A stretch of 63,205 nt of DNA, filler included, from Reclinomonas americana ATCC 50394 (lineage: Eukaryota), in assembly GCA_048213135.1 (NCBI GenBank). It is 5 parts of 4 records of this genome, joined end to end, with 100 filler letters (N's around TTAATTAATTAA, not from the genome) between each part and the next. Parts side by side here need not be neighbours in the genome. Positions count along the whole stretch, not along the records: positions 57,208 to 61,751 come from PS015470.1; 4 more parts are not named here. The stretch is one strand, 5' to 3'. A program made the position numbers and the translations under genes. Below, in pieces: positions 5,323 through 61,751 of this stretch. Every line of letters begins with the position of its first letter. The first letter of the stretch is position 1. Under the pieces are notes generated by a model. The model saw only the letters and a program-made list of their open reading frames with translations, was not told the DNA's origin and ran no database searches.

Positions 5323-6534
5323 TCACCGAGCGCCCATTCTGTGGAACACGAGCTGGTGATCGGTCTCTTGCGGACCGGGCTTTAGCGACACCATGACGGG
5401 CCGGTTGCGCAGCGACGAGCGCAGCATGACCAGATCGCTGTTGGCGATCTGCGTGCCGTCTCCCTCATGCTCCACTGCCGCAGCGTCGCTGTCGGCTGCA
5501 TTCTCTGCATTATTCGTCGACGTCGTCGTCGTTGTTGTCGATGCAGTCGTCTTTTCCGGTTCAATGCTGGTGTAGTAGCCGGCAATGCTCACCAGCTCCG
5601 GATTGAAGGCAGCCGCGTAGATGCGGCAGTTCAGATTGCCGCGCAGACTACGACACACACACGCACACGCACACACGCACACACACAGGTATGAGGGAAC
5701 TGACACGGAGTGGCAACGGCAGCGATTCGACGTACCCTGCGTGCGCCTGGCCCTCCAGCACGCCGTACACGTGAATGTCGCCGTCGGCCCGCACTTCGCC
5801 GTACGCATGCACGTGGCCAATGACCACCAGGCTGCGGTCCTTGGCGTACACCTCCTGCCCGCCACGCACCGGCTGCGACCACACCAGCGCCTCCAACGGT
5901 GCAGCTTGCACCTGTGCCGGTGGTGGAGGCGGAGGCTGAGGCGTGGCGGGCTGAGAGGACAGCGCTGCAGCTGGCTGATCGCTGCCACTGACAACAACCA
6001 CCGACTGACTGTTTTCGCGCACGAGTGGCAACCGTGCGGCCTGCGCAATCGCCTTGCTGTAGCGCGATGCCTGCGTGACTCCCACCGGCAGCATCTCGCA
6101 CTCCCCACGCAGTGTGTCGGCAATGTGGCGCACAAAGTCGGCTACCTCCTCGCTACTGCTGCTCATCTCTGCAGTGCCGGCCGGTGTCGTGGCATCTGCA
6201 TCGCTCGGTGGTGTGGCCGGTGGTCGATAGTCTCTGTTGACATGCATGTGAGTCAGAGAGGGAGAGAGGACAGGGGAGAAGGGTGTGTGTGTGCACGCAA
6301 CAGGACGACGGGGGAGCCTCGATAGAAGGCAGCAGTGGCACGAATCTGCGTGTGCGAGTGAGAAGTGATGAGCATGCATCATGCAGTCAGCCTGTGAGAG
6401 ACCTTGTCGAGTGCACTGAGGCCATCCTCCCGCGAACTGATGCGCAGTGTGGGCACGAGGAAGGACTTGTTGACGAGCGCCAGCTTGTGATTGCTGCTGA
6501 AGAGAGCGCGACTGACGAGTGCTCTGAGAATCAT
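5323..6534 (-). CDS. minC: Septum site-determining protein MinC homologue with predicted mitochondrial presequence
   Basis: Exons 6534-6403, 6345-6302, 6233-5736, 5647-5323. Product MILRALVSRALFSS...IRATAAFYRGSPVVLD...PVRGGQEVYAKDRSLVVIGHVHAYGEVRADGDIHVYGVLEGQAHAGLRGNLNCRIYAAAFNPELVSIAGYY, matching the MinC C-terminal beta-helix (VRSGQ, ADGxIHVYG, ELVSIAG). Confidence 0.9.
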
Positions 6535-6571
6535 GTTGAGTCGCGAACTGGGACGGAGGACAAGACTTCTT

Positions 6572-8966
<2,395 letters not shown>

Positions 8967-13549: not shown

Positions 13550-13561
13550 TTAATTAATTAA
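13550..13561. other. Artificial scaffold linker TTAATTAATTAA (stops in all six frames)
   Basis: Identical 12-mer embedded in Ns, also at 30939, 57152 and 61796. Confidence 0.9.
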
Positions 13562-13606: not shown

Positions 13607-16600
13607 TCTTCGTGCACATGACACGGAGCTGCGCGTTGCTGCTCACTGTGTCAGACAACAGTGAATCTGCCAAAGCCGCAGCGCATCATGGCGCGCCTGC
13701 TGGTTTGTGTGACCTCCTTCCGCTCCGTTCTGTGATTACTGTTATCCTCACTGAACATATGTGTGTGCGATTTGACAGTTTGAGCTGGCATCCCCGAAGC
13801 GACCAGAGAAGGTGGTCGTCCACGCGCTCAACACGCTGCGCGCCGTCGGACCAGTGCTGCACCCGGCCGTGGCCGACATTTGGGATTCGGCGATCCCCGA
13901 CCTGATCAGCTTTTTGGACAGTGGTGCGATGTTGTTGTGTGCTCGCGCTCGCCACGAGATGTCGGTCGTTGATTTCTCGTCAACGCAGCCCTGGAAGACG
14001 AGGCGTTCGACAATGAGCAGTGGGAGAGCCGCATCGACGAGTTTGTATTCGACACCATCCGCGCCATGGCCGACGACGAATGGTCAGCATCGCTGCTCGA
14101 CGCCATGTGCGAGGTCATTGCCGGGTACGACACGGTCCACGATGGCCACTCACTCAAGGTGTGTACTCCGCGCGTCAGAGCTGGTGAGAGTGAGCGCCTC
14201 ATCCTCCTGTGCATGCAGCGATTCGGTTTCCGCGTCATGGGCGCAGTGATGCAGCAATGCAAGAAGCGCCTGGCTGTGCAGCAGACACTGGGTCAGATGA
14301 TTGAGTTGGCTGACCACACCTCGGCACCCGAGCGCGAAGGTCTGTATTTTTTATTTGTGGTTCTACCTGCATTTGCAGCGCTGCTCACGCTTGCGTATTG
14401 TGTTTGTGCTGCGCAGGCGTGGCATTGGGCTTTGGTCTCGCCTCTGTGACCTACATGGATTTCGCGTTTGAGCAGCTTCGGCAGTCGCTGACGCCAATCA
14501 AGCCGCAGAGCACTGGCTTCTTCTCCAAGTTCAAGTTGCGTCCACTTGTACCGTTGCGTTGGCGGTGTTCGACGCTGACGATTTTGGTGCCACAGGTCGG
14601 CCGTGGGTCCGTCGGATGCGCTGAAGGCGCTGATCCTCTTGAGCCTTGGCCAGATTGCCCAGTTCCTGCCGCCACAGTTGCGAAGCGTGCTGGTGATGAT
14701 GCTCCTTTCTCCCCCCAGTGTCCAACTGACGCGTGTGTAGGATGCTCATCTCACGTGTGGACGTGCACATTGTGGAGAAACTGTTGCCGCTGATCTCCGA
14801 ACCCAAGGCCACCGTCGTGCAAAAGGAGGCGGGCTTTATTGGCGTGGAGCTCGTCGCAGCGGCCATGCACATGGAGCGTCTCGTTGCGTGCTCACCCGAG
14901 TCGTCCCGTTCATTTTTGCATGCGCTCATCTCGCACTTGCAGGGGGCGAATTTTGTTCCGCTGAAGCGCCGCGTGGAGATTGTGCAGATGCTCCTCGCGA
15001 TGATGAACCCGAAAGAGCGCCGCCAGGAGCGCGATCCGGAGACTACGCGGCTACGCATCGCTGGTCTCTCTGCACTCGCCACTCTCATGTTGCGTCAGCC
15101 CTCTCTACCGTCTCTCCGTCATCCACGTTTGTATTGCCAACAAGAGTGTGTCGTCACAGCCGCCTCGATCCGCGATGGGATGTGGGTGCCTTGAAGGACA
15201 CTTTTGACGGTGTGGTGGGCTACGCCGAGTTGCCGCCGGAGGTGCTGGCGGCCGCTGGCGATGACGCCGCCAAGAAGCTGTTGGACGCTTGGAATATTTT
15301 GCTCGGCGAGTTGGTGATCCGCTCCGCTGAGGGTGTCACGCAGACACTGCACGTGATGCTGCGATGGCTGGCCGACTCTGTGCGCAAGCCAATCGCACAT
15401 GTGCGTCAGCGCGCTGTCGAGGCTGCCGTGTTCTGCCTGAAGGCGTTCGCCAAGTACTCGGCCGGTGTGCGTACCGCCGATGGCGAGGGCGCGATGACCG
15501 AGATGTCAGCGTGCTTCACCGACGGTCTCGGTTCGCACATTGGTCTGTTCAGTGCCCGCTGCACGGATCCCGACATGAATGTGCGCACGGCCGCTGCCGA
15601 CGCGCTGTACTTGCTCTACCGCATCAATCATTACCTGCGTGAGGGCCCCGGTGTGCCACTGCCTCGCGCTCTCGTGACGATTCAGACGCTCAAGTTGCGT
15701 CACTTTTCTTTCTCTCCGTGATCGAGATTTTATGTTCGTGTACTGACACTGTGCTCTCTCTCTCTCTTGCTGGCTCACAGGAATAGCATGGATGTCGAGG
15801 ACTCGCGTGAGTTGTTCACGATTGCAAAGGAGGTGGCCAATGTCGTCGGCGAGATGGTTCGTCGCAGACGATGCATGTGACTTGTGTGTCCTGTTGTGTA
15901 CTCACAAGATGGCGGCGCCGTTGGCAGACACCCGAGGCTCAACTGCGACCCATGATCGACTCGCTAATGGCCAGCCTCGAAGACAACGAAGTCGATGTGG
16001 CCAACGGCGTGTGTGTTCTCGTCAACGGTCTGGTGTCGTCGCAGACAGACGAGTGTGTATGTGTGTGCTTACGTCGTGTGCAGGCATTCTGCGAATCCGT
16101 GGTGGCGAACTGCGCGACGATGTGTTTACGTTCATCACGGCCTTGGTCAATGTGCTGCCGAACTTGAAGGATCGCGAGCAAACGGTGTGCATCTGCTGCT
16201 GCATGTTTATTATTTGCTTGCGAGGTGCACTCACACAGCAGTAACGCACAGGTGAACGGTGTGCTACACGCGGTTCGTGCCTTGGCGCGCCACCATATCC
16301 AGGCGGTGGCCGATGCCATCTTGTCTTTCCGCAGGCCGCAAGCCGCGTTGCGTCTGAGGGTGGCCTCCATGTTTTTCTCCTCATACTTTGTCCGGTGACT
16401 TATCAAGTGCTTGGTGGTACAGGCACGTCACCAAGGCGATCCAGGTGCTGGCTGGTGACCCCACATTGCAACGGCATCTGGTGTCGCACCTCATCGACAT
16501 TATGAATAACACACAAATGTTTGAGGACTTCCGCCACGTGCCCTCTGCCGAAGCCAAGGTCAGCTGCTCGCTGCTGTCGCTGATGTGTGTGTGTTCTTTG

Positions 16601-27227: not shown

Positions 27228-28572
27228 TCACGCCTTGACACACGTAATGGTGGTCACCATGCGCTCGCACTTGGACGGCGACGTGCCGCAATTGTCGCTG
27301 GGGTGGCTCACCGCCTTGTAGTTGACAGTGGTCACCGAGCTTCCACCACCTGCTCCACACGAGTGAGTGAGCCATCTCTCTCTCCGCCCTCCCTCCCGTC
27401 TCTCCCCCACACACCGTCCAGGTTGATGGCATTCACAAAGCCCCTGTCCTTGGCCAACTGCGCAAACTCGTAGAGATCCAGACCCTGATTCAGCGGCTCA
27501 TTGCCGTCCACTTGCAACACGAGGACCTCGCCGGCGGCGTTGTTGCCAATGGCCACACGCGGCGCCTTCATCCACACAAAATCAAACGACGGTTGCTCAA
27601 TCGCCGCACTCTCCTCCACGTAGATGGTGCCGTTGCGGAGCAACCAGGTGACGCCAGTGACCAGCTGCTTGAATTGCATCGACTCGACCTGCGCCGCCGT
27701 CAAATAGCCATACACGAACTCGCCGCTCGCCGTCATGCCCCAGTTGGCGTTGCGCGACTCACGCGCATGCACCACTCGCCCGTCGCTGATGACATTGCCG
27801 AGGCAGTAGCCGCGGTGCACATCGAAAAAGCCGGCATTGGTGGCCGCCACACACCGCCGATCCTCCGCCGTCACCGACGTGCGCGTAAAGCCAGGGCAGC
27901 CATGCAGCGGCTCCTGAATCGAAAAGTGGTTGAGCGGGTCCGGCACACGGATGAGATACGCGTGCACGAGCTGATTGTTGATGACGACGCCAAAGTTGGT
28001 GTACTCGTACGGCGACACCCAGTACGGCCGCTTCTCCGCCGTCATCGGCTGCGCCACGGGAAACGTATCAAAATGCGGCCGCGACAAGCTGCTATCCTTG
28101 CTCGTGCTGGAGCTCGTCTCCATGAACAACTCCAGCAACTCCTCCTCATCGCCGCTGCCGCTGCCACGCAACCTTAATGATCGATTGATTTATCAGTCAG
28201 GGGTCAATGCATTTCCTCGCACACACGCACACAGAGTGCGTCTCCGTCTCTCTTAAGCACACGCACTCGCTCATGCTCCGTCAGTCTCTCCCTGTGTGTG
28301 TGTCTATTGGTGACTCACCGACTCCACGTGTCGACACTTTCATCATCACTGCTCGCCCGCACCGAATTCGCCGATTGCGACACAGAAGGAGGAGGCACGC
28401 GGAGGAGTGCGTCTCCCTGTGGCACTCCAAACTCACCCGGTGGGTACGGCTGTGCGCTGTGCTCTCGCGGCATGCCGCCCTCGCGCTCCTGCTCCAGACC
28501 GCGCACACTCACACACAAGGCGACGAGGATCGCGGTGAGCAGGAGCGCGGTGAGAGTGCCTGCTGCTGCCAT
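27228..28572 (-). CDS. Phosphodiester glycosidase (NAGPA / uncovering enzyme-like) with signal peptide
   Basis: Signal peptide; CVAATNAGFF, CLGNVISDG, LVTGVTWLLRNG, APRVAIG, VDG, AINLDGGGS, PSDNC...CER. Confidence 0.88.
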
Positions 28573-38063: not shown

Positions 38064-41000
38064 ATGTCTCGCCCGCACGCCATGGCGGCACACGCCGCTC
38101 TCTTCCTCATCATGTGCGTGGCGACGCTCTCTCTGCTCGCCTCCACGCCCACCGCACACGCACAAGGCACAACGCCTCCCTACGACTACGCGCGCGCCCT
38201 GCAACTCTCCTTCTTCTTCTATCGCGCACAACGCGCCAAGGGCTCCACCGCCAACATCAACTGGCGCGCCGACTGCTACCCCAACGACGGCAACAATGGC
38301 AGCCTCGCGGGGGGCTGGTTTGATGCCGGTGATCAAGTCAAGGTGCGTGTGTGTACAATGTTCTCGCACTCTCTCTCTGTGTGTGTCTCACACACAACGC
38401 ATCTTTTGGTTAGTTCCACTTGCCGCTCGGTTACTCGGCGTCCATGTTGGCATTCAGTGGACTGGAGTTCGGCGCCGGCTACACGGCCACCGGACTGCAC
38501 TCGGCGCTGCAAGCCGAACTGCAATACATCACCTCGTACATTATTGCGGCGTGGGAGGTGTGTTGTTGCCTTTTTGCGCTGCTGCTCTGTAGTTCTGCGA
38601 ATACCGACCGACGTACGTGCAGCCGTCTGTGCCGCGCTTGGCTGGTCAAGTGGGCGACGGCAATGTCGATCACTCATACGTTGCGTGATAGGCATCTTGT
38701 CTTGTTGTGTTGTTGCTCACTGTCTCATGCGCGTCACAGTGGATGGCGTGCGAGGTCCTCACCACGTTTTACACCACCACGCCGCGCCCCACGTACTGGC
38801 TGGTGCGTTCTGTGCTCGTTGCCGGCGCATTCTGTAGCGGAAATTGACACCTGCTGAGCGCAGACACCCACGTGCCCGGGCACGGAGGTGGCCATGGAGT
38901 TTGCCGCTGCACTCGCCGCCTCGGCGCTTTACTTTACTCAGTACGGTATGTGTGTGTGTGTCTCTCTATCTGTGTTGTGCACTCTTCCCTTTGGCCTCAT
39001 TTCGTTGTCGTAGGCGGCGCCACGTCGACGTACATTTCACAACTGCGCACGGTGGCCGCGCAGCTGTACGACTTTGGCTTCAACTACAAGGGCGCGTACT
39101 CGAACTGCATCACCAACGCTGCCGCGTTCTACAACAGCTGGAGCGGCTACCAAGATGAGATCGCCTGGGCCAGTGCCTGGATGTACAAGCTCACTGGCGA
39201 CTCGGCGTACCTGAGCAAGGCGACTGCGGCGTATGGTGTCTCGGACCCTGGTCTCGGCGTCATCTCATGGTACGCAGTCGTCGTCAATGAGCTCACCCCC
39301 TCTCCCTCCATCGTGGCTCACCTTCTGCGTGTCTCCCTCCACCAGGGACAATGTCTCGCAAGGCGCAGGTACTTTCTCCTCCGTCCTCCCTCTCACCCTC
39401 CCACCCCTCTCCCTCACCCATCCTCCCCTTCACCAGCGCTGCTGTTGTTCGACGCCGCCGTGGCCACGGGCAACACGTCGCTTCGCGACACAGTAGTCTC
39501 GCGTCTCAACAACGACATGAACCGCCTGAGCACGTGCTCGGTGGGCATGGGTTGCACGCCCGACGGCCTGATTGTGGTCGACCAGTGGGGCTCGCTTCGC
39601 TACGCCGCCAACGGTGCCGTGATTGCCGAGGCCTGGGCCAAGCGCTGGCCGTCCACAGCCTCCACCGCGCTCGGTGTCTCCTCGTCGCAGATCAACTACA
39701 TCCTCGGCAAGAACAGCGCCGCTCGCTCGTACGTCATTGGCTTCGGCTCAAACTTCCCGCGCAATCCGCACCACCGCACTGGCCACGGCCCGTGGGCGAA
39801 CCAGGCCGGTTGCTGCCCGACTGTCAACGTGCACACCCTGTACGGTGCCCTGGTCGGCGGTCCCTCGTCCACCAACCCAGCGTCCTATGTTGTTGCGTTT
39901 CTGAAAGAGCGAGGAGTGTTAAGGTAAGTTTTTTTGTCGCTGATAAGTGTGTGTGCTTGCAGGATGATCGCACCAACTACGTCACCAACGAAGTGGCAGT
40001 CGACTACAACGCTGGACTCACTGGTGCGCTGGCGGCGCTGAGCGCTCGCTTTGCCGTCTCACCACCGCCGACCATCGCCACCGAGGCCGTGCAAACCGAG
40101 TTTGCGGCGGCGGTGACAGTGCAGCAACAGCAGGCCGGCTCGTTCACCGAATTCAAGATTGTCATTAGCCAGACTACCGCCTGGCCCGCTCGTCGCTTCC
40201 CGCTCGCCTACCGGTGCGCCACCACTCACGTGTGAACTCACCACTGTCGCCACACACTTACCGTGCATTTTGTCGCACAGCTACTTCCTCGACTTGAGCG
40301 ATGTGGCCTCGATGAACCTGGGCGGCACCCCCGCCTCGCACGTGACTGTGAGCACTTCGTACAATCAGGGCAGCGCCACTGTCTCGCCCCTGCAGCTGTG
40401 GTCCGGCAATATTTGTTGCGTTGCTGCGCGTGGGCACGCACGACATGCGCTCTTGCTGCTGACACGACGTTCTTCACCACAGACTTTATCGAGGTGTCCT
40501 ATTCGGCTGCCAACGCACCGTATCCAGGTGGCCAGGGCGTGTACCAGGTGCGACCATCTCCAAACTCTCACCCCTCTCTCTGTTTGTGCTGAAGCAACAC
40601 CTGCGCGCAGGCCGAGGCTCAAATTCGCTTCACCCTCTCCGGCAACGTCACCAACAGCAAGTGGGACCGCACCAAGGATTGGTTTGTCGTGCTGCACTTA
40701 CGATTCCTTGTTTTCTCTCAGGCACACAGCTCACATCACCACTCCAGGTCGTACGCCGGAGGCTCGCATGTGGTCATTTACAACTCGGCACTCGGCCAAA
40801 TCGCCTTTGGCACACAGCCCGACGGCAGCGGTGTGCCACCGCCGACTCCGCTGACATGCCCGAACAACTGCAGCAGCAACGGCACTTGCGACACCACCAC
40901 CGGTCTGTGCACCTGCACCAGCGGCTACACCGGCCTGGACTGCTCTGGTTTGCACGTTGCTCCTTCACGATTACCTCGCTCCTCCTTCTCTCATGATCAC

Positions 41001-44000
41001 GCCTCGTGCACTCGCAGTTGCCCCGCCCAATCCGATTCCCTGCCCGAGCAACTGCAGCGGCCACGGCATGTGCGATACGACTCGCGGCGTGTGCGCCTGC
41101 ACTGGTGGCTACACCGGCACCGACTGCAGCGGTGTGTTTTCTTGTCGCCGTCAGCCATCAACGAATATCTGTCTCACAACCGCCTTTCCACTCAGTGGCC
41201 CCGATTCCGTGCCCGAATAACTGCTCAAGCCACGGCAACTGCGACACGACTCGTGGCGTGTGCACATGCACTGGCGGTTACACTGCCACCGACTGCAGCG
41301 GTTCGCAGCATTGCGTCGCCACACGTGAGCTGTGTTCAGTACCCAACTCATTTTCTGCATTGCGCAGTGGCACCTCCGTTGCCGGCCGACTGTGTCGTAT
41401 TCAACGTCAACGTGTGGGGCGGCGGCAACGGCATGACCATCAATGCGACGGCTCCGACCGCCAAGCTGGTGACTCGTGTGTGTGGAGTCTCTGCAGTTGA
41501 AGGAGTGCTTCGACCAACTGTATATTGTTGTTGTGTGTGTAGGGCTCCGTGATTTCATGGACATGGTCTGGCTCGGTTACGATCAGCAGCACCGACATCT
41601 GGAACGCGACATTGATCAACAGCACGTCCGTGAAGACCATGTACGACAACATGGGCAACTTTGGCTTCAACGCCATTTACGTGCGTCATTCCGCCTGTCA
41701 CTGCGATCCTATTGAACAAAATTGCATTCTGACCATCGTGCTCAGACCGGAACCACTGCGCCGACTGCCTCCAACTTCAAGATCGATGGCGTGTCGTGCG
41801 GTGGTTGCGTATTCATTCTCTTTCTCATTCTTTCCGTCTCTCGCACTCTAGCTGACCTGTCGTGTGCTTCACAGCCTCGATGCCCACCTGCCCCACGTGC
41901 GCGAACGGCGGCTCATGCGACACGGCGACAGGCAAGTGCTCATGCACGAATGGCTTCGATCCGGCCACCAACTGCACCTCCTGCTTGGCCGGACGCTTCG
42001 GCGCCACCTGCAGTGGCACGTGCCCCACCTGCGCCAACGGCGGCAAGTGAGTCGTGTTCTGAATACGTATATACGAAACGTAATCGCTCACGCGCCTCCT
42101 TGCACACCTCGCCTGCAGGTGCACTGATGGCTTGTCGGGCAACGGCACATGCTCGTGCCCCATTGGCTTCAACACCGCCGACAATTGCGCGTCGTGCTTG
42201 CCGGGTCGTTATGGGGCCACCTGCAGTGGCGTCTGCGCGTGCCAGAACGGCGCCAGGTTTGTCGGTTGTGATTTGCCGTCCGTGCATACCAACGTCTTAT
42301 ATCATCGAATGCAGCTGCAACGAGGGTATCACCGGCAACGGATCGTGCACTTGCACCACTGGTTTCTACGGCTCCACGTGCTCGGGACAGTGCTCACAAT
42401 GGTGTGTGACGACAGTGAGTGTGCATGGAGTTCACCGATTGTGACATTCGTCGTGCATTATCAGCCCTGCGAACACTGCGTGCACCTCTGGTGCCAATGG
42501 CGGATGCGTGTGTGCCGCCGGCTTCGCGTCTCCCACTTGCACTAACTGCATTGCTGGCCGCTACGGTCCCACGTGCAGCGGCGTGTGCCCGACTTGCGCC
42601 AACGGTGGCACGTTGCGTCATGATGACCTTACTGCTCTTGTTGGCTTTCAACCTCTGACACGCATTCTTCGTGCAGGTGCCAGAGTGGCACGACCGGTGA
42701 CGGCAAGTGCGCGTGCCCGGCTGGCTTTGACCCGGCGACCAACTGCGCCTCGTGCTTGGCCGGCCGCTACGGCTCGACGTGCAGCGGTACCTGCAACTGC
42801 GTAAATGGCGGAACGTGCGTTGTTCACAGCTTGTTGCGAGTGCTTGCATTTCTCCCGGATTACTGACTGCCTGCTGCAGATGCAATTCTGGCCTGACTGG
42901 CAACGGAACTTGCACATGCCCCACTGGCTTCTACGGTGCCACATGCTCCGGCCTCTGCTCGCAGTGGTGTGTATCGCAGTGCTTTTCTGTTACGTGCGAC
43001 TGTGCTTACCACTGTGCCTTGCAGCCCCGCCAACTCGACCTGCACCTCTGGTGCCACTGGCGGCTGCGTGTGTGCTGCTGGTTTCGCGTCTCCCACTTGC
43101 ACCACCTGCATTGCCGGCCGCTACGGCCCCACATGCACTGGCGTGTGCCCGACCTGCGCCAATGGTGGCACGTTGCGTCGTGATGACCTTACTGCTCTTG
43201 TTGGTCTTCCATATCTGACCCGCATTCTTCGTGCAGGTGCCAGAGTGGCACGACCGGCAGTGGCAAGTGCACGTGTCCTGCTGGCTTTGACCCGGCGACC
43301 AACTGCGCATCGTGCTTGGCCGGCCGCTACGGTTCGACGTGCAGCGGTACCTGCAACTGCGTGAATGGCGGAACGTGCGTTTCTAGCATGCAAACTGGCG
43401 ACCGTGTCACTCTGCATGTTCTCACCGTTTTCGCCACAGCTGCTCATCTGGTCTGACGGGTACTGGTGCATGCACTTGCCCCAACGGCTACTACGGTGCC
43501 ACGTGCTCTGGCCTCTGCTCGCAATGGTGAGTCACAGCAACTCGAGAATGTTGCGTCCACAGAGGCTCATTGCTTGTTGTCATCGGCAGTCCCTCGGGAA
43601 CCACGTGCCAGTCTGGTGCCACTGGAGGCTGCACGAGTTTCGTGTGATGTTGGGGAGCATATGTGTGTGTGGCAAAGATCGTGACGCACTCACTCCACGT
43701 TTTGTACAGCTTCTGGAGGCGCCACCTGTGCCGATGTCACGTGGGCACCTACCTCAACATGGCCTGGTGGACAGACGGTGACGGTGACGATCAAGACCGG
43801 CAAAGTGGTGCGTTTGACGGCGCATGCCCATGTAGGTTTATGTGCATCGCAGCTGAACGATGCATGCGTAGGGAACCAAACTGGGCTGGACATGGAGCTC
43901 TGCTGTCACGTCGCTGCAGACGTGGAGCGTTACCGAGCTGGTGAACGCGACGACCATGAAGACGAAGCCATCGTGAGTTTTTTCCACGTCACCTCTCACC

Positions 44001-57163: not shown

Positions 57164-57261
57164 NNNNNNNNNNNNNNNNNNNNNNNNNNNNNNNNNNNNN
57201 NNNNNNNCCCCATGCCCGTCACGTGGCGTGTGCTCACCTCCCCCTCTTTTCCCGTGTGCAG

Positions 57262-58709
57262 TGCTGCAAAAGCTGGGCGGCACGGTCGACGACACGGAGC
57301 TGGTGAATGGCATTGTGTTCAAGCAAAAGGCCAGCCACTCGGCCGGTGGACCCAACCGCATTGAGAACGCCAAGATCGGTCTGATTCAGTTCTGCCTCTC
57401 GGCACCCAAGACCGACGTTGCGTGCTGTTTTGGCAGCAGGGAAGAGACGGAGAGAGTTCTCCAGTGGCTTACATGGATGGTGCTTCGCACAGATGGACAA
57501 CTCGGTGATTGTCAGCGATTACCACCAGATGGACCAGATCATGGCCGACGAGCGCAAGTACCTGCTGCGCCTGGTGCGCCACATCAAGCAGACGGGTGTG
57601 TTTGGCGGAGCTCTCATAATGCTGTCGGCATGGGGGACTATTCTTTTTCCTCATTCACGCACAAACACACACACGCAGGCTGCAATGTGCTGCTGATCCA
57701 GAAGAGCATTCTGCGCGATGCCGTGTCACCGCAGTCGCTGGCCTACCTGGCCAAGGCCGGCATCATGGTGATTCGTGATGTGGATCGTACCGAAATTGAG
57801 TTTATTGCCGAGACTCTCGGCTGCATGCCGGCCGCCAACCTGGCGGGCTTCACCGCCGAGAAGCTCGGTCGCGCCAACCTGGTCGAGGAGGTGCCGACGG
57901 GCGAGGGCAAGATTGTGAAGATCACCGGCACACCCGACGCCAGGACCACCTCCATTCTGGTGCGTGGCTCCAACAAGCTGATTCTGGAGGAGGCCGAGCG
58001 CTCGCTGCACGACGCCCTCTGCGTCGTGCGCAGCCTGGTCAAGCGGAGGTACGTTGCTGTGTTGGGCAGGGAGGGAGAAGGGGTGGGGACAATCTCTTCT
58101 TCTCTTTGTGGCTGTTGACGATGAGATTCTTGCTGACACCTCTTCTGAATAACCGTGAGTGATAATGCAAGTGCTGAAACGCGCCTAAGAGAGAGAAAGA
58201 GAAAGAGCGATTGACCCCACCCTTTTCCCCTAGTCTCTTGTCGTGTGCGATAGTCGTGCTGAGTCTTCTTCGCGATTGCGCAGGTTCCTGATCACTGGCG
58301 GCGGTGCGCCGGAGATGGAGCTGTCGGTGCAGCTGCAAAAGTGGGCCAAGACCCTCCCTGGCATGGACTCGTACTGTGTGCGCGCCTACGCCGAGGTTTG
58401 TGTTTGCGGGAGATTTCATGCAGTGGTTGGTTGCCTACTCACCTCTGTTGCGCACAGGCCTTCGAGGTCATCCCGGTGACACTGGCTGAGAACGCCGGCT
58501 TGCACCCGATTTCGATCCTCACCGAGCTTCGCGCAAGGCACGTGGAGGGCGACAAGGCCGCCGGCATCAACGTGAAGCGTGGCCGTGTGACGAGCATGGT
58601 CGACGAGCACGTGCTGCAGCCGCTGTTGACGAACATCTCGGCCGTCAACCTGGCCACCGAAACCGTGCGCATGATCCTCAAGATCGACGACATTATTGTG
58701 GTGCCTTAA
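57262..58709 (+). CDS. CCT4: T-complex protein 1 subunit delta, 5'-truncated
   Basis: [77 protein letters not shown]. Confidence 0.95.
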
Positions 58710-58871
58710 GAGAGGAGCGTCGGTGAGAGGGAGAGCGACGTCGATGGCAGACGGGGGTGAGAGAGCGAGAGAGCTGAGAGTAAAGACAACGAAAAAAATC
58801 TTTCACACGAAGGTTGATTGTAGTTAGCCAGCTCTACCGCCTTCATTCTTCGTCTCTCGGTCTCTAACTCC

Positions 58872-59606
58872 TCACACATTGTCTCTCAGAAGCACAACAG
58901 CACACAGCACCAGGAGCACGACTGCGACCAGTGGAACGATGGCGAAGCAACCTGCTCCCGTCAATGAGCCACGCTGCAGTACTAATTCAACGGGTGATAC
59001 GGCAGGTGTTACCCCGCACGCAAGCTGAGAAAGCACGTTCAACAGCCGAGTACGAAGCGGTGGACCACGACAGCTCGATTGTGTGGAGCACTGCACGAGA
59101 GGAGGATGCACATCAACATCTCCTGGTGCCCTCACCGCCCACAGCAGCATCCACACCTGCACGATATTGTCTTCCACACCTGGCGGATACTTCCAGTGCC
59201 GAACGAGTAACACGGGCCGTCGAGAAACGACAAAAAGTGCCACGTCGTGGTCGGCTTGCAAGGCGTCTAGGTCACTCTGATCAAGCACGCTTCGTAGGTC
59301 TGACAGCACTTCCTCCAGCTCGGGCGCGCTGCGGCAGCTGGTGAGTGTACTGTCGCCAACGTCAACTTGGAATCGACAAGGCTTCGTCATCGGTGCCATC
59401 AGCAGCTCCCGAGACTGGTAGTCAGCGAGTAGTGTTATCCGTGTTGTCTGCTGCACAAGGAGCATTCGACGAACTCGCGCATCCGAATGCAGACTGAAAA
59501 CCGACAGAAACTGGCGCCACAGCCCAGCTTGCGATATCGGATCCGGATTGCCGCCTCTCGCCAGGTCAGGTAAGTTACCGAGGGGTAACTTCCCTTCACT
59601 GCTCAT
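58872..59606 (-). CDS. Orphan protein (about 244 aa) with C-terminal transmembrane anchor
   Basis: Uninterrupted frame from ATG 59606 (MSSEGKLPL) without the microsatellites typical of local introns; ends CFAIVPLVAVVLLVLCAVVLLRDNV. Confidence 0.6.
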   Translation of the reverse strand: MSSEGKLPLGNLPDLARGGNPDPISQAGLWRQFLSVFSLHSDARVRRMLLVQQTTRITLLADYQSRELLMAPMTKPCRFQVDVGDSTLTSCRSAPELEEVLSDLRSVLDQSDLDALQADHDVALFVVSRRPVLLVRHWKYPPGVEDNIVQVWMLLWAVRAPGDVDVHPPLVQCSTQSSCRGPPLRTRLLNVLSQLACGVTPAVSPVELVLQRGSLTGAGCFAIVPLVAVVLLVLCAVVLLRDNV

Positions 59607-59667
59607 GTTGTATACGTAACATGAGAGCAAACCCCACAGAATGTTGCAAGAGAGCAGCGAGCTCCAC

Positions 59668-61356
59668 TTACTGGAATCGGGCAATGAGACGCTCGGCGCT
59701 GAGGTGATTTCGCACGGATGCAAAGCTGAACATGTAATCCTGCAGTGCCGACGATTCAACCAACAGCTCGTGCGTACTGCACTACAGAGCATGGACTCAA
59801 ACCTTGTCCAGCACCCGGTGCCAGTCGAAAGCGTCGCTCGACAACAGCGGGGGGAGATGAGCCCTCAGTGCCTCCACGAGCACTTGCACGACCCTCAGCC
59901 GAAGACCGGCCAAGGTGGACGCCAGTGACGCCTGTTGAAGTCCAACAACGATCCACCCGTCGTGCATGGCATGTGCGGGATTCAAATAGCCGTTGACCAC
60001 AGCAGCGTACGGCGACTCGGCCTCCGGCACCCACACGGCACCCTCGTACCGCGACGCAAACACGATGCCCTCGTTGCCCGGCAGGAAGAGATTGTTGTCT
60101 TGCCAGTGGTCACACACAAACATCGCTGCCTCGTGCAGTGCCTCGGTGAGAGAGAGCACCGGTGCCATGCTCTGTGCCGCCCACTGTGCTCGCGATCGGC
60201 AACAGCACCCACAGAGTGAGTCGGGAGTTCACGAAAGCATGCGCAGGAGGAGCTGAGCAGTCCGGCATACTTGCCTTGTAGAGCAACGCTTCCAGATGCA
60301 CGCTCTTGAACGGAGTCTTGAGAAGGCCGCCCAGTATCTCGAAGTTCATGCACTTGTTCCAGTGCTTCAGCAGCCGGATCACCTCGCGCACCAGTGGCTG
60401 CTGCGCTCGTGTCGCTTCCAGCTTGTCCGTGTGCTCGGGAGGATGCGTGGGCACCCACCGAATGTAGTGCTCGTTCATAACAGCAGGAAGCCGTGTACGG
60501 CAGTCACTCGGGTGCACAAACACGGGCACGAAGTCTGCGTCGACTTGTANNNNNNNNNNNNNNNNNNNNNNNNNNNNNNNNNNNNNNNNNNNNGTCGCAT
60601 TATTGGAATGTGGTGAATGAAGTGTTTTGTTTTTGTTAACTGGTGACTTGGGCGAGGCTGCTGACCGAGTGAGCGCCAACAGAAGCCTGCGCTGTGGAAC
60701 ACACGGCGCCCACTATACCTTGCATGCCCAGCCGAAGTTCCACAGAAGCTCGACGGCAAACTGGGTCGGAACATCGCCAAACTTGAACACGTGCACGATC
60801 CGGATCCTGACATCAACATGAGACTGCAGAGCACGAGACTGCAGAACAATCCACACACAGACACACATGCATGCACGCGCATGTATGCACACGCGCGCAA
60901 GCACACACAGCACGCACACGCGCTCTCTCGCCACCACGATGGTGATTTCGGAAAAACGCACCTGCAGCGACGCACATGCGATGACAACGGGGAATGCTCG
61001 ACCAAGAAAGGCGTTGAACTCGGCAGCAAAGCGTGCGACACCAGTGGCGTCGCGCTGAAGCACACTCCACACCTCCGACGCGCGTACGAGCCGTGCATCG
61101 TGACAGTGAAATCCAAGTCACACAACGGATTCCCAGTGGGCGAGCGCACCGCTGTTCCCCTGGTCGCAGAGCCAGTGGCGGCGATATCCAGGATCTGGAA
61201 TGGAGGTGGCAACGAAACTCCACAGCGCTCTGCATTCTCGAGCTCCAGCAGCAGCTGCTGTGTGACGACGCGTGCAAAGTGAACGAGGCACAGCCGCTGG
61301 CGTTTTGATGGTGTGATGCGTTTCAGATGGGCGCGCAGAACGGCTTCAGCGCTCAT
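59668..61356 (-). CDS. cGAS/OAS/CD-NTase (SMODS)-like nucleotidyltransferase, intron-containing, one small gap
   Basis: TGSATRGTAV...CDLDFTV (GS...DxD), VDADFVP (third Asp), WVPTHPPEH, VIRLLKHWN, KSVHLEALL, LFLPGN; middle exons uncertain; ends at 59668 if the last intron (59802-59741) is spliced, otherwise at 59797. Confidence 0.8.
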
Positions 61357-61465
61357 TTTACAGTAGAGTTGGCGGGAGAGGCAGTGTCCCCTCTGTCCTG
61401 CAGCGCTCGAAGAGCCGCTTCATATTGTGTCCAATTTCAGAGCGGAAGGGCCCGCCGCCGCCTCC

Positions 61466-61751
61466 ATGGACCCGCCGGCTGTCATCCGCACCGTGACCGC
61501 CTGGCTACGTGAACGCGGTGCGCATCATCGACCGCACACACACACACACACACACGCATCATTCCACAACTCACTCTCATGCATGTTCGGCAGGGGCGAT
61601 CCATGGACTCTTCACGGAACCTGGCGACCAACGCGTCACCAGTGCACTCTTCAAGGCCGTTGCCTGTTGCGTTCCGCGAGCGAGCGCCAGCGCGCGTGTC
61701 TCTCTCTCTCTCTGTGTCTGTACGTGAGTGCATCAGTTGGGAAGGGTCCTC
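61466..61751 (+). CDS. 5' fragment of an unknown gene, divergent from the nucleotidyltransferase
   Basis: ccATGG start MDPPAVIRTVTAWLRER, GT-AG intron, exon GAIHGLFTEPGDQRVTSALFKAVAC, then a GTTGCG donor. Confidence 0.45.

Follow-up and report, generated by a model that had tools for sequence, protein, structure and literature searches.

In this work, we have analysed a gene coding for a putative nucleotidyltransferase (NTase) in a stretch of 63,205 nucleotides, filler included, from Reclinomonas americana ATCC 50394 (GenBank assembly GCA_048213135.1); this whole stretch is referred to as the window. The gene lies on the minus strand, from its ATG at 61356 to 59668, and shares a scaffold piece with the gene for CCT4. 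Close to its start the translated product carries a basic N-terminal helix (LKRITPSKRQR), followed by a GS-x3-GT loop (GSATRGT), the catalytic DxD (DLD), a strand bearing the third catalytic aspartate (Asp; DADFVP), and the segments WVPTHPPEH, IRLLKHW, KSVHLEAL and LPGN. A first-pass annotation of this DNA had listed these motifs in this succession, and all of them are present on the minus strand with order and coordinates as it had given them (Table 1). In the translation, as in the alignment to a profile hidden Markov model (HMM) described below, the GS loop is intact, and so are the third Asp and both Asp residues of the DxD. Assignment of the gene to the CD-NTase family (cGAS/DncV-like nucleotidyltransferases) is supported at the level of sequence and, judged by its motifs, the predicted enzyme is of the bacterial type.

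The profile was built from 23 bacterial CD-NTases. Eighteen of them came from the 25 places located in a genome search (model PDLC00823 against 401 genomes, with matches in 22) and five were proteins from an earlier seeded search; the seven places that were dropped comprised two with internal stops, four split halves and one fragment. The search seed was a plasmid-borne cyclase of CBASS, the antiphage system that signals through cyclic oligonucleotides, found by tblastn, and it was used as a seed only, not as evidence. The tblastn search against plasmids gave 88 records at E<=10, and among the 30 listed two coincided with genes annotated as CBASS cyclases (E 1 and 5), the listed matches being otherwise mostly to ABC-transporter genes or unannotated stretches. 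A first, narrow HMM (120 proteins, 80-97% identical) found exon 3 only and was replaced by the 23-sequence profile.

Against this profile the spliced NTase model scored 36.9 bits (E 1.7e-13, Z=1), the exon with the third Asp alone 31.3 bits, and the exon with the GS loop and the DxD alone 9.3 bits (E 4.4e-5, Z=1). The alignment places the GS-x3-GT loop (GSyargT), the DxD (DiD), the second D of DADFVP, W..T.P..H, RllKxW and KS..LE on the bacterial consensus. Two controls were performed. When all 1030 six-frame open reading frames (ORFs) of at least 30 residues in the window were searched, the top two were the third-Asp ORF (E 1.3e-8) and the GS/DxD ORF (E 0.11), which share one strand and are ordered as in the profile. 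With 1000 shuffles each, the maxima were 6.6, 3.4 and 3.8 bits, compared with the real scores of 31.3, 9.3 and 36.9 bits. The third-best ORF (55627-57006, minus strand, 460 codons, E 0.25) is a translated CA/GA microsatellite (HTHT, SLSL) that ranked there by chance, and was rejected as a paralogue. Comparison of the NTase model with the 23-sequence alignment by hhalign gave a probability of 92.6% (E 6e-8), and in the global mode LPGNEG is set opposite the bacterial 'dP.n' segment.

Library scans (Pfam, PADLOC, NCBIfam and PDB) were run on single exon pieces, six in all. In PADLOC the third-Asp exon matched 15 models at matching profile positions, every one of them a CBASS cyclase ('oligonucleotide-cyclase'), with PDLC00823 as the best (E 1.2e-7). 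In NCBIfam the same exon matched CBASS_cyclase_a (E 0.0015) and CBASS_cyclase_b (E 0.0022), and no other model. A phmmer search of the PDB with this exon returned six matches at E<=10, all weak (E 0.36-1.1) and all to bacterial CD-NTases; the alignments cover the third-Asp strand and the W..T.P..H segment, and neither an OAS nor a cGAS chain is found among the matches at this threshold. In Pfam at E<=1, OAS1_C (PF10421) was not matched by exons 3 and 4, which cover its region, and Mab-21 (PF03281) was not matched by any exon. The first-pass annotation had described the W-x-x-T-x-P and KS-x-x-LE segments as closer to bacterial CD-NTases than to Mab21/cGAS. The PADLOC, NCBIfam and PDB results agree in that the protein resembles bacterial CD-NTases more than OAS or Mab21, and the W..T.P..H segment aligns to the bacterial consensus both in the PDB phmmer search and in the HMM. 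At the level of single exons, the comparison with family profiles that the annotation had put forward as a check gave matches to bacterial cyclase models and none to OAS1_C or Mab-21.

The remaining exons were less informative. PADLOC and NCBIfam gave no match on NTase exons other than the third-Asp exon, and the GS/DxD exon (exon 1) had none in Pfam, PADLOC or NCBIfam. The short exon that follows the frame change described below had no profile match of its own in Pfam or PADLOC, and the exon of the C-terminal lobe (exon 4) had none in Pfam, PADLOC or the ESM Atlas. For the first exon, the nearest clusters of the ESM Atlas are bacterial SMODS/DncV-like fragments (0.90), and SMODS occurs in 26-34% of the members of the neighbouring clusters; we treat both observations as leads only.

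The reading of the gene as five exons, all stop-free in the proposed frames, was examined with codon-usage log-odds trained on 891 codons from the profile-supported exons of the window. In each NTase exon the proposed frame has the highest codon-usage score. Exons 2-5 score 0.03 to 0.14, compared with -0.5 to -1.1 in the other frames, while exon 1 is weaker (-0.22); the exon of the C-terminal lobe gives the strongest signal (0.14 versus -0.63 and -0.85), and the exon lying between the DxD and the third Asp is positive in the proposed frame only (0.03 versus -0.69 and -0.95). The 123-nucleotide (nt) intron has an alternative acceptor at 60824, which would lengthen it to 138 nt. For the GC-AG intron of 91 nt, the GT alternative is a donor at 60232, giving an intron of 49 or 61 nt; the GC donor is favoured by the non-coding score of 60274-60233 (-0.84 per codon). 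Within exon 1 there is a change of frame. Enumeration of frame-restoring GT...AG pairs gave one usable candidate, an intron of 50 nt whose donor, GTCACG, resembles the certain CCT4 donor GTTGCG. With this intron or with a correction of 1 nt, the model scores alike on the CD-NTase HMM (34.1 and 36.9 bits), which does not separate the two readings, and codon usage favours the shifted frame downstream of the change. Two explanations stand for the frame change: an intron of 50 nt with a weak donor, or an indel of 1 nt that is genuine or an error of the assembly.

The gene is interrupted by a lone gap of 44 N (60550-60593), with the GS/DxD exons on one side of it and the third-Asp exon on the other. 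The phase of the visible AG at 60546-60545 does not fit the donor at 60718, so the third-Asp exon must start inside the gap. The two sides of the gap cover profile positions 49-77 and then 117-200. As these are successive stretches of a single profile, both on one strand and correctly ordered, we accept the scaffold join across the gap.

Table 1. Predicted features of the NTase gene, its possible extension and the neighbouring CCT4 gene (window coordinates).
Feature	Position	Strand	Basis
Exon 1: start codon, N-terminal helix, GSATRGT, DLD	61105-61356	-	sequence, translation
GSATRGT (GS-x3-GT loop)	61173-61153	-	translation
DLD (catalytic DxD)	61119-61111	-	translation
Frame-change segment: 50-nt intron (GTCACG...CAG) or 1-nt indel site	61055-61104	-	enumeration of frame-restoring GT...AG pairs
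Exon: helix after the DxD strand, ends at donor CAG/GTGCGT	60962-61054	-	open frame and best codon usage
Intron, 123 nt, GTGCGT...CAG, rich in TG/CG microsatellite	60839-60961	-	sequence; style like CCT4 introns
Exon: beta strands between DxD and third Asp, ends AAG/GTATAG	60719-60838	-	codon usage
Intron start, then 44-N gap; acceptor and first codons of the next exon hidden in the gap	60548-60718	-	N runs, phase inference
Core exon: third Asp, WVPTHPPEH, IRLLKHW, KSVHLEAL	60275-60547 (visible part)	-	profile matches
DADFVP (third-Asp strand)	60541-60524	-	translation
Third catalytic Asp, second D of DADFVP	60535-60533	-	aligned to D of 'hvDvVPaf' and to the same strand in 9sa4
WVPTHPPEH	60457-60431	-	translation
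IRLLKHW	60379-60359	-	translation
KSVHLEAL	60307-60284	-	translation
Intron, 91 nt, GC-AG type, GCAAGT...CAG	60184-60274	-	phase analysis
Exon: C-terminal lobe with LPGN	59803-60183	-	codon usage, hhalign
LPGN	60084-60073	-	translation
Intron, 63 nt, GTTTGA...CAG	59740-59802	-	sequence; resembles CCT4 intron 4 (56 nt, GTTTGT...CAG)
Last exon, with stop	59668-59739	-	sequence; codon-usage score 0.14
Stop TAA	59670-59668	-	translation
Uncertain extension	58872-59671	-	sequence, in-frame join
CCT4 (TCP-1 delta), 3' two-thirds, four GT-AG introns, cut by scaffold start	57261-58709	+	Pfam, PDB, tblastn

Does the NTase gene belong to the nuclear genome of the protist? The window is a pseudomolecule in which separate scaffolds are chained by N44-TTAATTAATTAA-N44 linkers at 13550, 30939, 57152 and 61796, with 23 runs of N making up 7462 of its 63205 bases. 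As these scaffolds are unrelated, gene neighbourhood is meaningful within one piece only, which for the NTase gene is a piece of 4.5 kb (57208-61751). On this piece, exons 3-5 of the NTase gene and CCT4 stand on one uninterrupted contig. CCT4 is convergent with the NTase gene and is identified by a match to the Pfam family Cpn60_TCP1 (E 4.5e-40) and by its best matches in the PDB, which are to CCT delta (2e-58; epsilon 1e-22, thermosomes 1e-27); residues before about 200 are absent, the gene being cut by the start of the scaffold. Mapping with three CCT4 proteins by tblastn gave five exons and four introns of 56-223 nt, with the donors GTTGCG, GTGTGT, GTACGT and GTTTGT and acceptors in CACAG or CGCAG, some of the introns being filled with CA repeats. 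The NTase introns are of 63-123 nt, with the donors GTGCGT, GTATAG and GTTTGA and acceptors ending in CAG. This match to the CCT4 introns in size and ends, on the same scaffold piece, argues that the NTase gene is nuclear, and it bears out the earlier claim of spliceosomal introns in a resident nuclear gene. That claim had also leaned on the CCT4 neighbour; this part of the argument stands in that both genes share one scaffold piece, but it does not extend to the rest of the window, which consists of unrelated scaffolds. Over 330 aligned residues the CCT4 protein shares 79.7% identity with its counterpart in the jakobid Seculamonas ecuadoriensis, whereas with the 21 others in the comparison the identity does not exceed 70.6%; in a quick tree the window's CCT4 and the Seculamonas protein are sisters with a support of 0.94. 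Judged from this one protein, the host is probably a jakobid.

Other features were noted elsewhere in the window. At 5648-6571 (minus strand), on a eukaryotic scaffold, there is an ORF whose product has the C-terminal domain of MinC (Pfam E 2.7e-15). MinC is a bacterial-type division-site protein that jakobids and a small number of further protists retain for their mitochondria, so that its presence would fit a jakobid host. On scaffold pieces other than that of the NTase gene there are exons of a GH9 cellulase-type glycosidase (38848-40235, plus strand, E 2.9e-48), of a GH1 glycosidase (6379-7209, minus strand, E 2e-18) and of an NAGPA-type phosphodiester glycosidase (27332-28189, minus strand, E 1.4e-25). 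ORFs with teneurin-like EGF repeats (40593-41552, plus strand, E 1.6e-6) and with Maestro/HEAT repeats (14741-15721, plus strand, E 1.7e-7) were also seen. Rfam and tRNA scans of the window gave no match.

The NTase gene may not end at its stop codon. The TAA overlaps a perfect donor, CCA/GTAAGT, at 59671, and a candidate intron of 73 nt with its AG at 59599 would join the last exon in frame to an open frame of 241 codons (59598-58875) that ends in a hydrophobic, predicted membrane helix (residues 215-240). This helix is the only confident part of the predicted fold of the open frame, whose mean pLDDT (predicted local distance difference test) is 38.8. In favour of the extension, the NTase gene and the open frame would, as separate genes, be only about 60 nt apart. 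Against it, the open frame shows a weak coding signal, and this in its middle part only, and long non-coding open frames do occur in this GC-rich genome, as seen in the frame-1 read-through of exon 1, which reaches 314 codons, and in the 460-codon microsatellite frame at 55627-57006. The open frame had no match in Pfam, PADLOC or the PDB. Searched against 401 bacterial genomes, it gave five weak matches (E 5e-4 to 5e-3 per genome), four of them with internal stops, which we set aside as being at chance level. Splicing of the NTase gene to this open frame is possible, with the balance tilting against it, and the open frame could instead be a separate gene or non-coding.

How distant is the NTase from its relatives? 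Compared one by one with the 23 bacterial enzymes, it is 15-25% identical over 152 aligned columns, and in a tree with these 23 unlabelled bacterial CD-NTases it forms a long branch for which no partner has support. Searches with exon 3 in larger collections did not bring a relative to light: a word-based protein search yielded 51 candidates, none at E<=0.01; scans of metagenome and viral contigs yielded 309 and 4 pattern matches, respectively, none confirmed; and phmmer against 1.84 billion representatives gave three matches at E<=0.001, all to tandem-repeat proteins and judged spurious. A horizontal origin of the NTase gene, as suggested in the first-pass annotation, is possible. The low identity and the long unplaced branch do not support a recent transfer from any sampled bacterial clade.

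Taken together, we consider it probable that the NTase gene resides in the nuclear genome of a jakobid-like protist, has four to six short spliceosomal introns and codes for a very divergent enzyme of the CD-NTase type. Several observations weigh against this reading. The gene cannot be read straight through, owing to the frame change in exon 1, the 44-N gap and the GC donor. A significant library match comes from one exon only, for four of the six exon pieces no match could be detected, and in Pfam no family at all was matched at E<=1 by the six pieces, SMODS and NTP_transf_2 included. The NCBIfam match, at 17.7 bits, is far under the curated cut-off of 200. The GS/DxD exon is a weak match window-wide, and its PDB search gave three matches without any NTase among them, the best being a designed repeat protein and no stretch passing alone. 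No usable fold of the NTase was obtained, the single-sequence fold of exon 4 having a mean pLDDT of 38.5. Finally, no close relative was found by any route searched.

Some of these observations would be expected if the gene were a decaying relic or pseudogene, in which the CD-NTase homology is real but the working enzyme has been lost. The only intron able to absorb the frame change of exon 1 has the weak donor GTCACG, and there is no homopolymer at the site to account for an assembly indel; one intron requires a GC donor, exon 1 has the weakest codon-usage signal, and relatives were found in no collection searched. However, the five exons are stop-free with the GS loop, the DxD Asp pair and the third Asp intact, exons 2-5 show a clear frame-specific codon bias, and a canonical GT-AG intron of 50 nt, with a donor like the GTTGCG of CCT4, gives an intact reading, so we regard loss of function as unlikely. 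Misassembly deserves the same scrutiny, as the window is a chain of small gapped scaffolds and the gap splits the gene: unrelated contigs could have been misjoined across the 44 N, or the sequence could derive from bacterial contamination. The order and strand of the profile positions on the two sides of the gap speak against a misjoin, the C-terminal side is contiguous with the eukaryotic CCT4, and the GT-AG introns on both sides of the gap exclude a bacterial contaminant; to an artefact of this sort we attach very little weight.

The other alternatives concern the family rather than the integrity of the gene. The NTase could be a fast-evolving, vertically inherited member of the ancient eukaryotic OAS superfamily, neither eSMODS-like nor horizontally acquired. 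The third Asp follows the DxD at a distance of 70-95 residues, depending on the reading of exon 1 and on the N gap, which is longer than in the bacterial profile (about 50) and presumably nearer to the spacing in OAS and cGAS; IRLLKHW may resemble the corresponding helix of OAS1. The long unplaced branch in the tree fits this explanation as well, and OAS-like proteins, according to the survey of Culbertson and Levin (2023, PMC10732462), are present in 8 of the 12 supergroups of eukaryotes and fall within bacterial clade C. On the other side, the exons covering OAS1_C and Mab-21 matched bacterial cyclase models and neither of these two families, the PDB matches are six bacterial CD-NTases with neither OAS nor cGAS, and W..T.P..H fits the bacterial consensus, which together make an OAS ancestry rather improbable. 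The GS...DxD arrangement alone is common to the whole Pol-beta superfamily, and Euglenozoa, which are relatives of jakobids, are rich in terminal uridylyltransferases (TUTases); an enzyme without a role in second-messenger synthesis (for example a TUTase, poly(A) polymerase or minimal NTase) might be envisaged. The significant matches, however, fall in the CD-NTase-specific region after the third Asp, the PADLOC models are cyclases throughout, and no PAP-associated or NTP_transf_2 family was matched in Pfam at E<=1 by the NTase exon pieces, making this possibility remote.

What might a divergent CD-NTase do in this protist? By analogy with the family, the three Asp residues would hold two Mg2+ ions and the GS loop would position the donor NTP, and the enzyme would make from NTPs either a cyclic product, a di- or trinucleotide, or a short linear oligonucleotide. 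The product would be a second messenger switching on an effector encoded elsewhere, most likely in antiviral defence. It is possible, though less likely than not, that jakobids possess a working bacterial-type synthase of cyclic oligonucleotides, which entered separately from eSMODS, OAS and cGLR, has gained introns since and is maybe spliced to a membrane-anchored tail. If so, a CBASS-like sensor and synthase would be placed on a membrane in a eukaryote. To our knowledge, no CD-NTase has been reported from jakobids, which are deep-branching free-living flagellates, and none of the papers listed in a literature search dealt with jakobids alongside cGAS, CD-NTase, CBASS or oligoadenylate; a further search on SMODS and horizontal transfer in protists brought up no relevant paper among those listed. 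The NTase is a very divergent addition to the known eukaryotic CD-NTases of bacterial type, and possibly the first from jakobids. Bacterial-type immunity genes of eukaryotes are used to trace how cGAS-like signalling has moved between the domains of life. One small eukaryotic group of the SMODS type has been published so far, and no member of it has been tested; a further member, intron-bearing and very divergent, from a jakobid-like protist would widen the known spread of such enzymes. The NTase would also offer a second, independent test case for the products and ligands of such enzymes in eukaryotes, although it opens no new category.

Compared with known systems, the NTase resembles the bacterial CBASS CD-NTases (PDLC00823/PDLC00769, CBASS_cyclase_a/b, and the structures 9sa4, 6p8u and 6p80, the last being CdnC). 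It has in common with them the GS loop, the DxD and the third Asp, as well as W..T.P..H, RllKxW and KS..LE in the same order. It differs from them in its low identity and in being an intron-split eukaryotic gene outside any operon: no recognisable Cap effector adjoins it, the same-strand open frame downstream (59598-58875) being unmatched and the other neighbour being CCT4. The longer stretch between the DxD and the third Asp could, speculatively, hold a regulatory or ligand-sensing surface. With the OAS proteins, widespread in protists, the NTase shares the fold family, the catalytic motifs and a long insert between the DxD and the third Asp, but its exons lack an OAS1_C match and its W..T.P..H is of the bacterial type. 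The cGAS/cGLR (Mab21) enzymes of animals belong to the same superfamily and the same chemistry is expected; in the NTase, by contrast, no Mab-21 match was seen in Pfam and no cGAS chain among the PDB matches, and the host is not an animal.

In the survey of Culbertson and Levin (PMC10732462), the eukaryotic CD-NTases form three groups: cGLR, mostly in animals; OAS; and eSMODS, a small, bacterial-looking group from Amoebozoa, choanoflagellates, Ancyromonadida and one sponge, which belongs to bacterial clade D. The first-pass annotation had therefore rated the novelty of the gene too highly, a eukaryotic SMODS-type superfamily being already in print. In five supplementary files of that paper, which include neither the fasta nor the tree files, six jakobid or Discoba names, Naegleria, 'Euglen' and Heterolobosea do not occur, while the control name Oscarella occurs 14 times. 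SMODS (PF18144), the Pfam family that defines eSMODS, was not matched at E<=1 by any of the six pieces in single-exon scans. The hosts of eSMODS named in the survey are other than that of the NTase, which is probably a jakobid. The likeness to eSMODS is one of concept and of likely function, as both are bacterial-looking CD-NTases in the nuclear genome of a microbial eukaryote.

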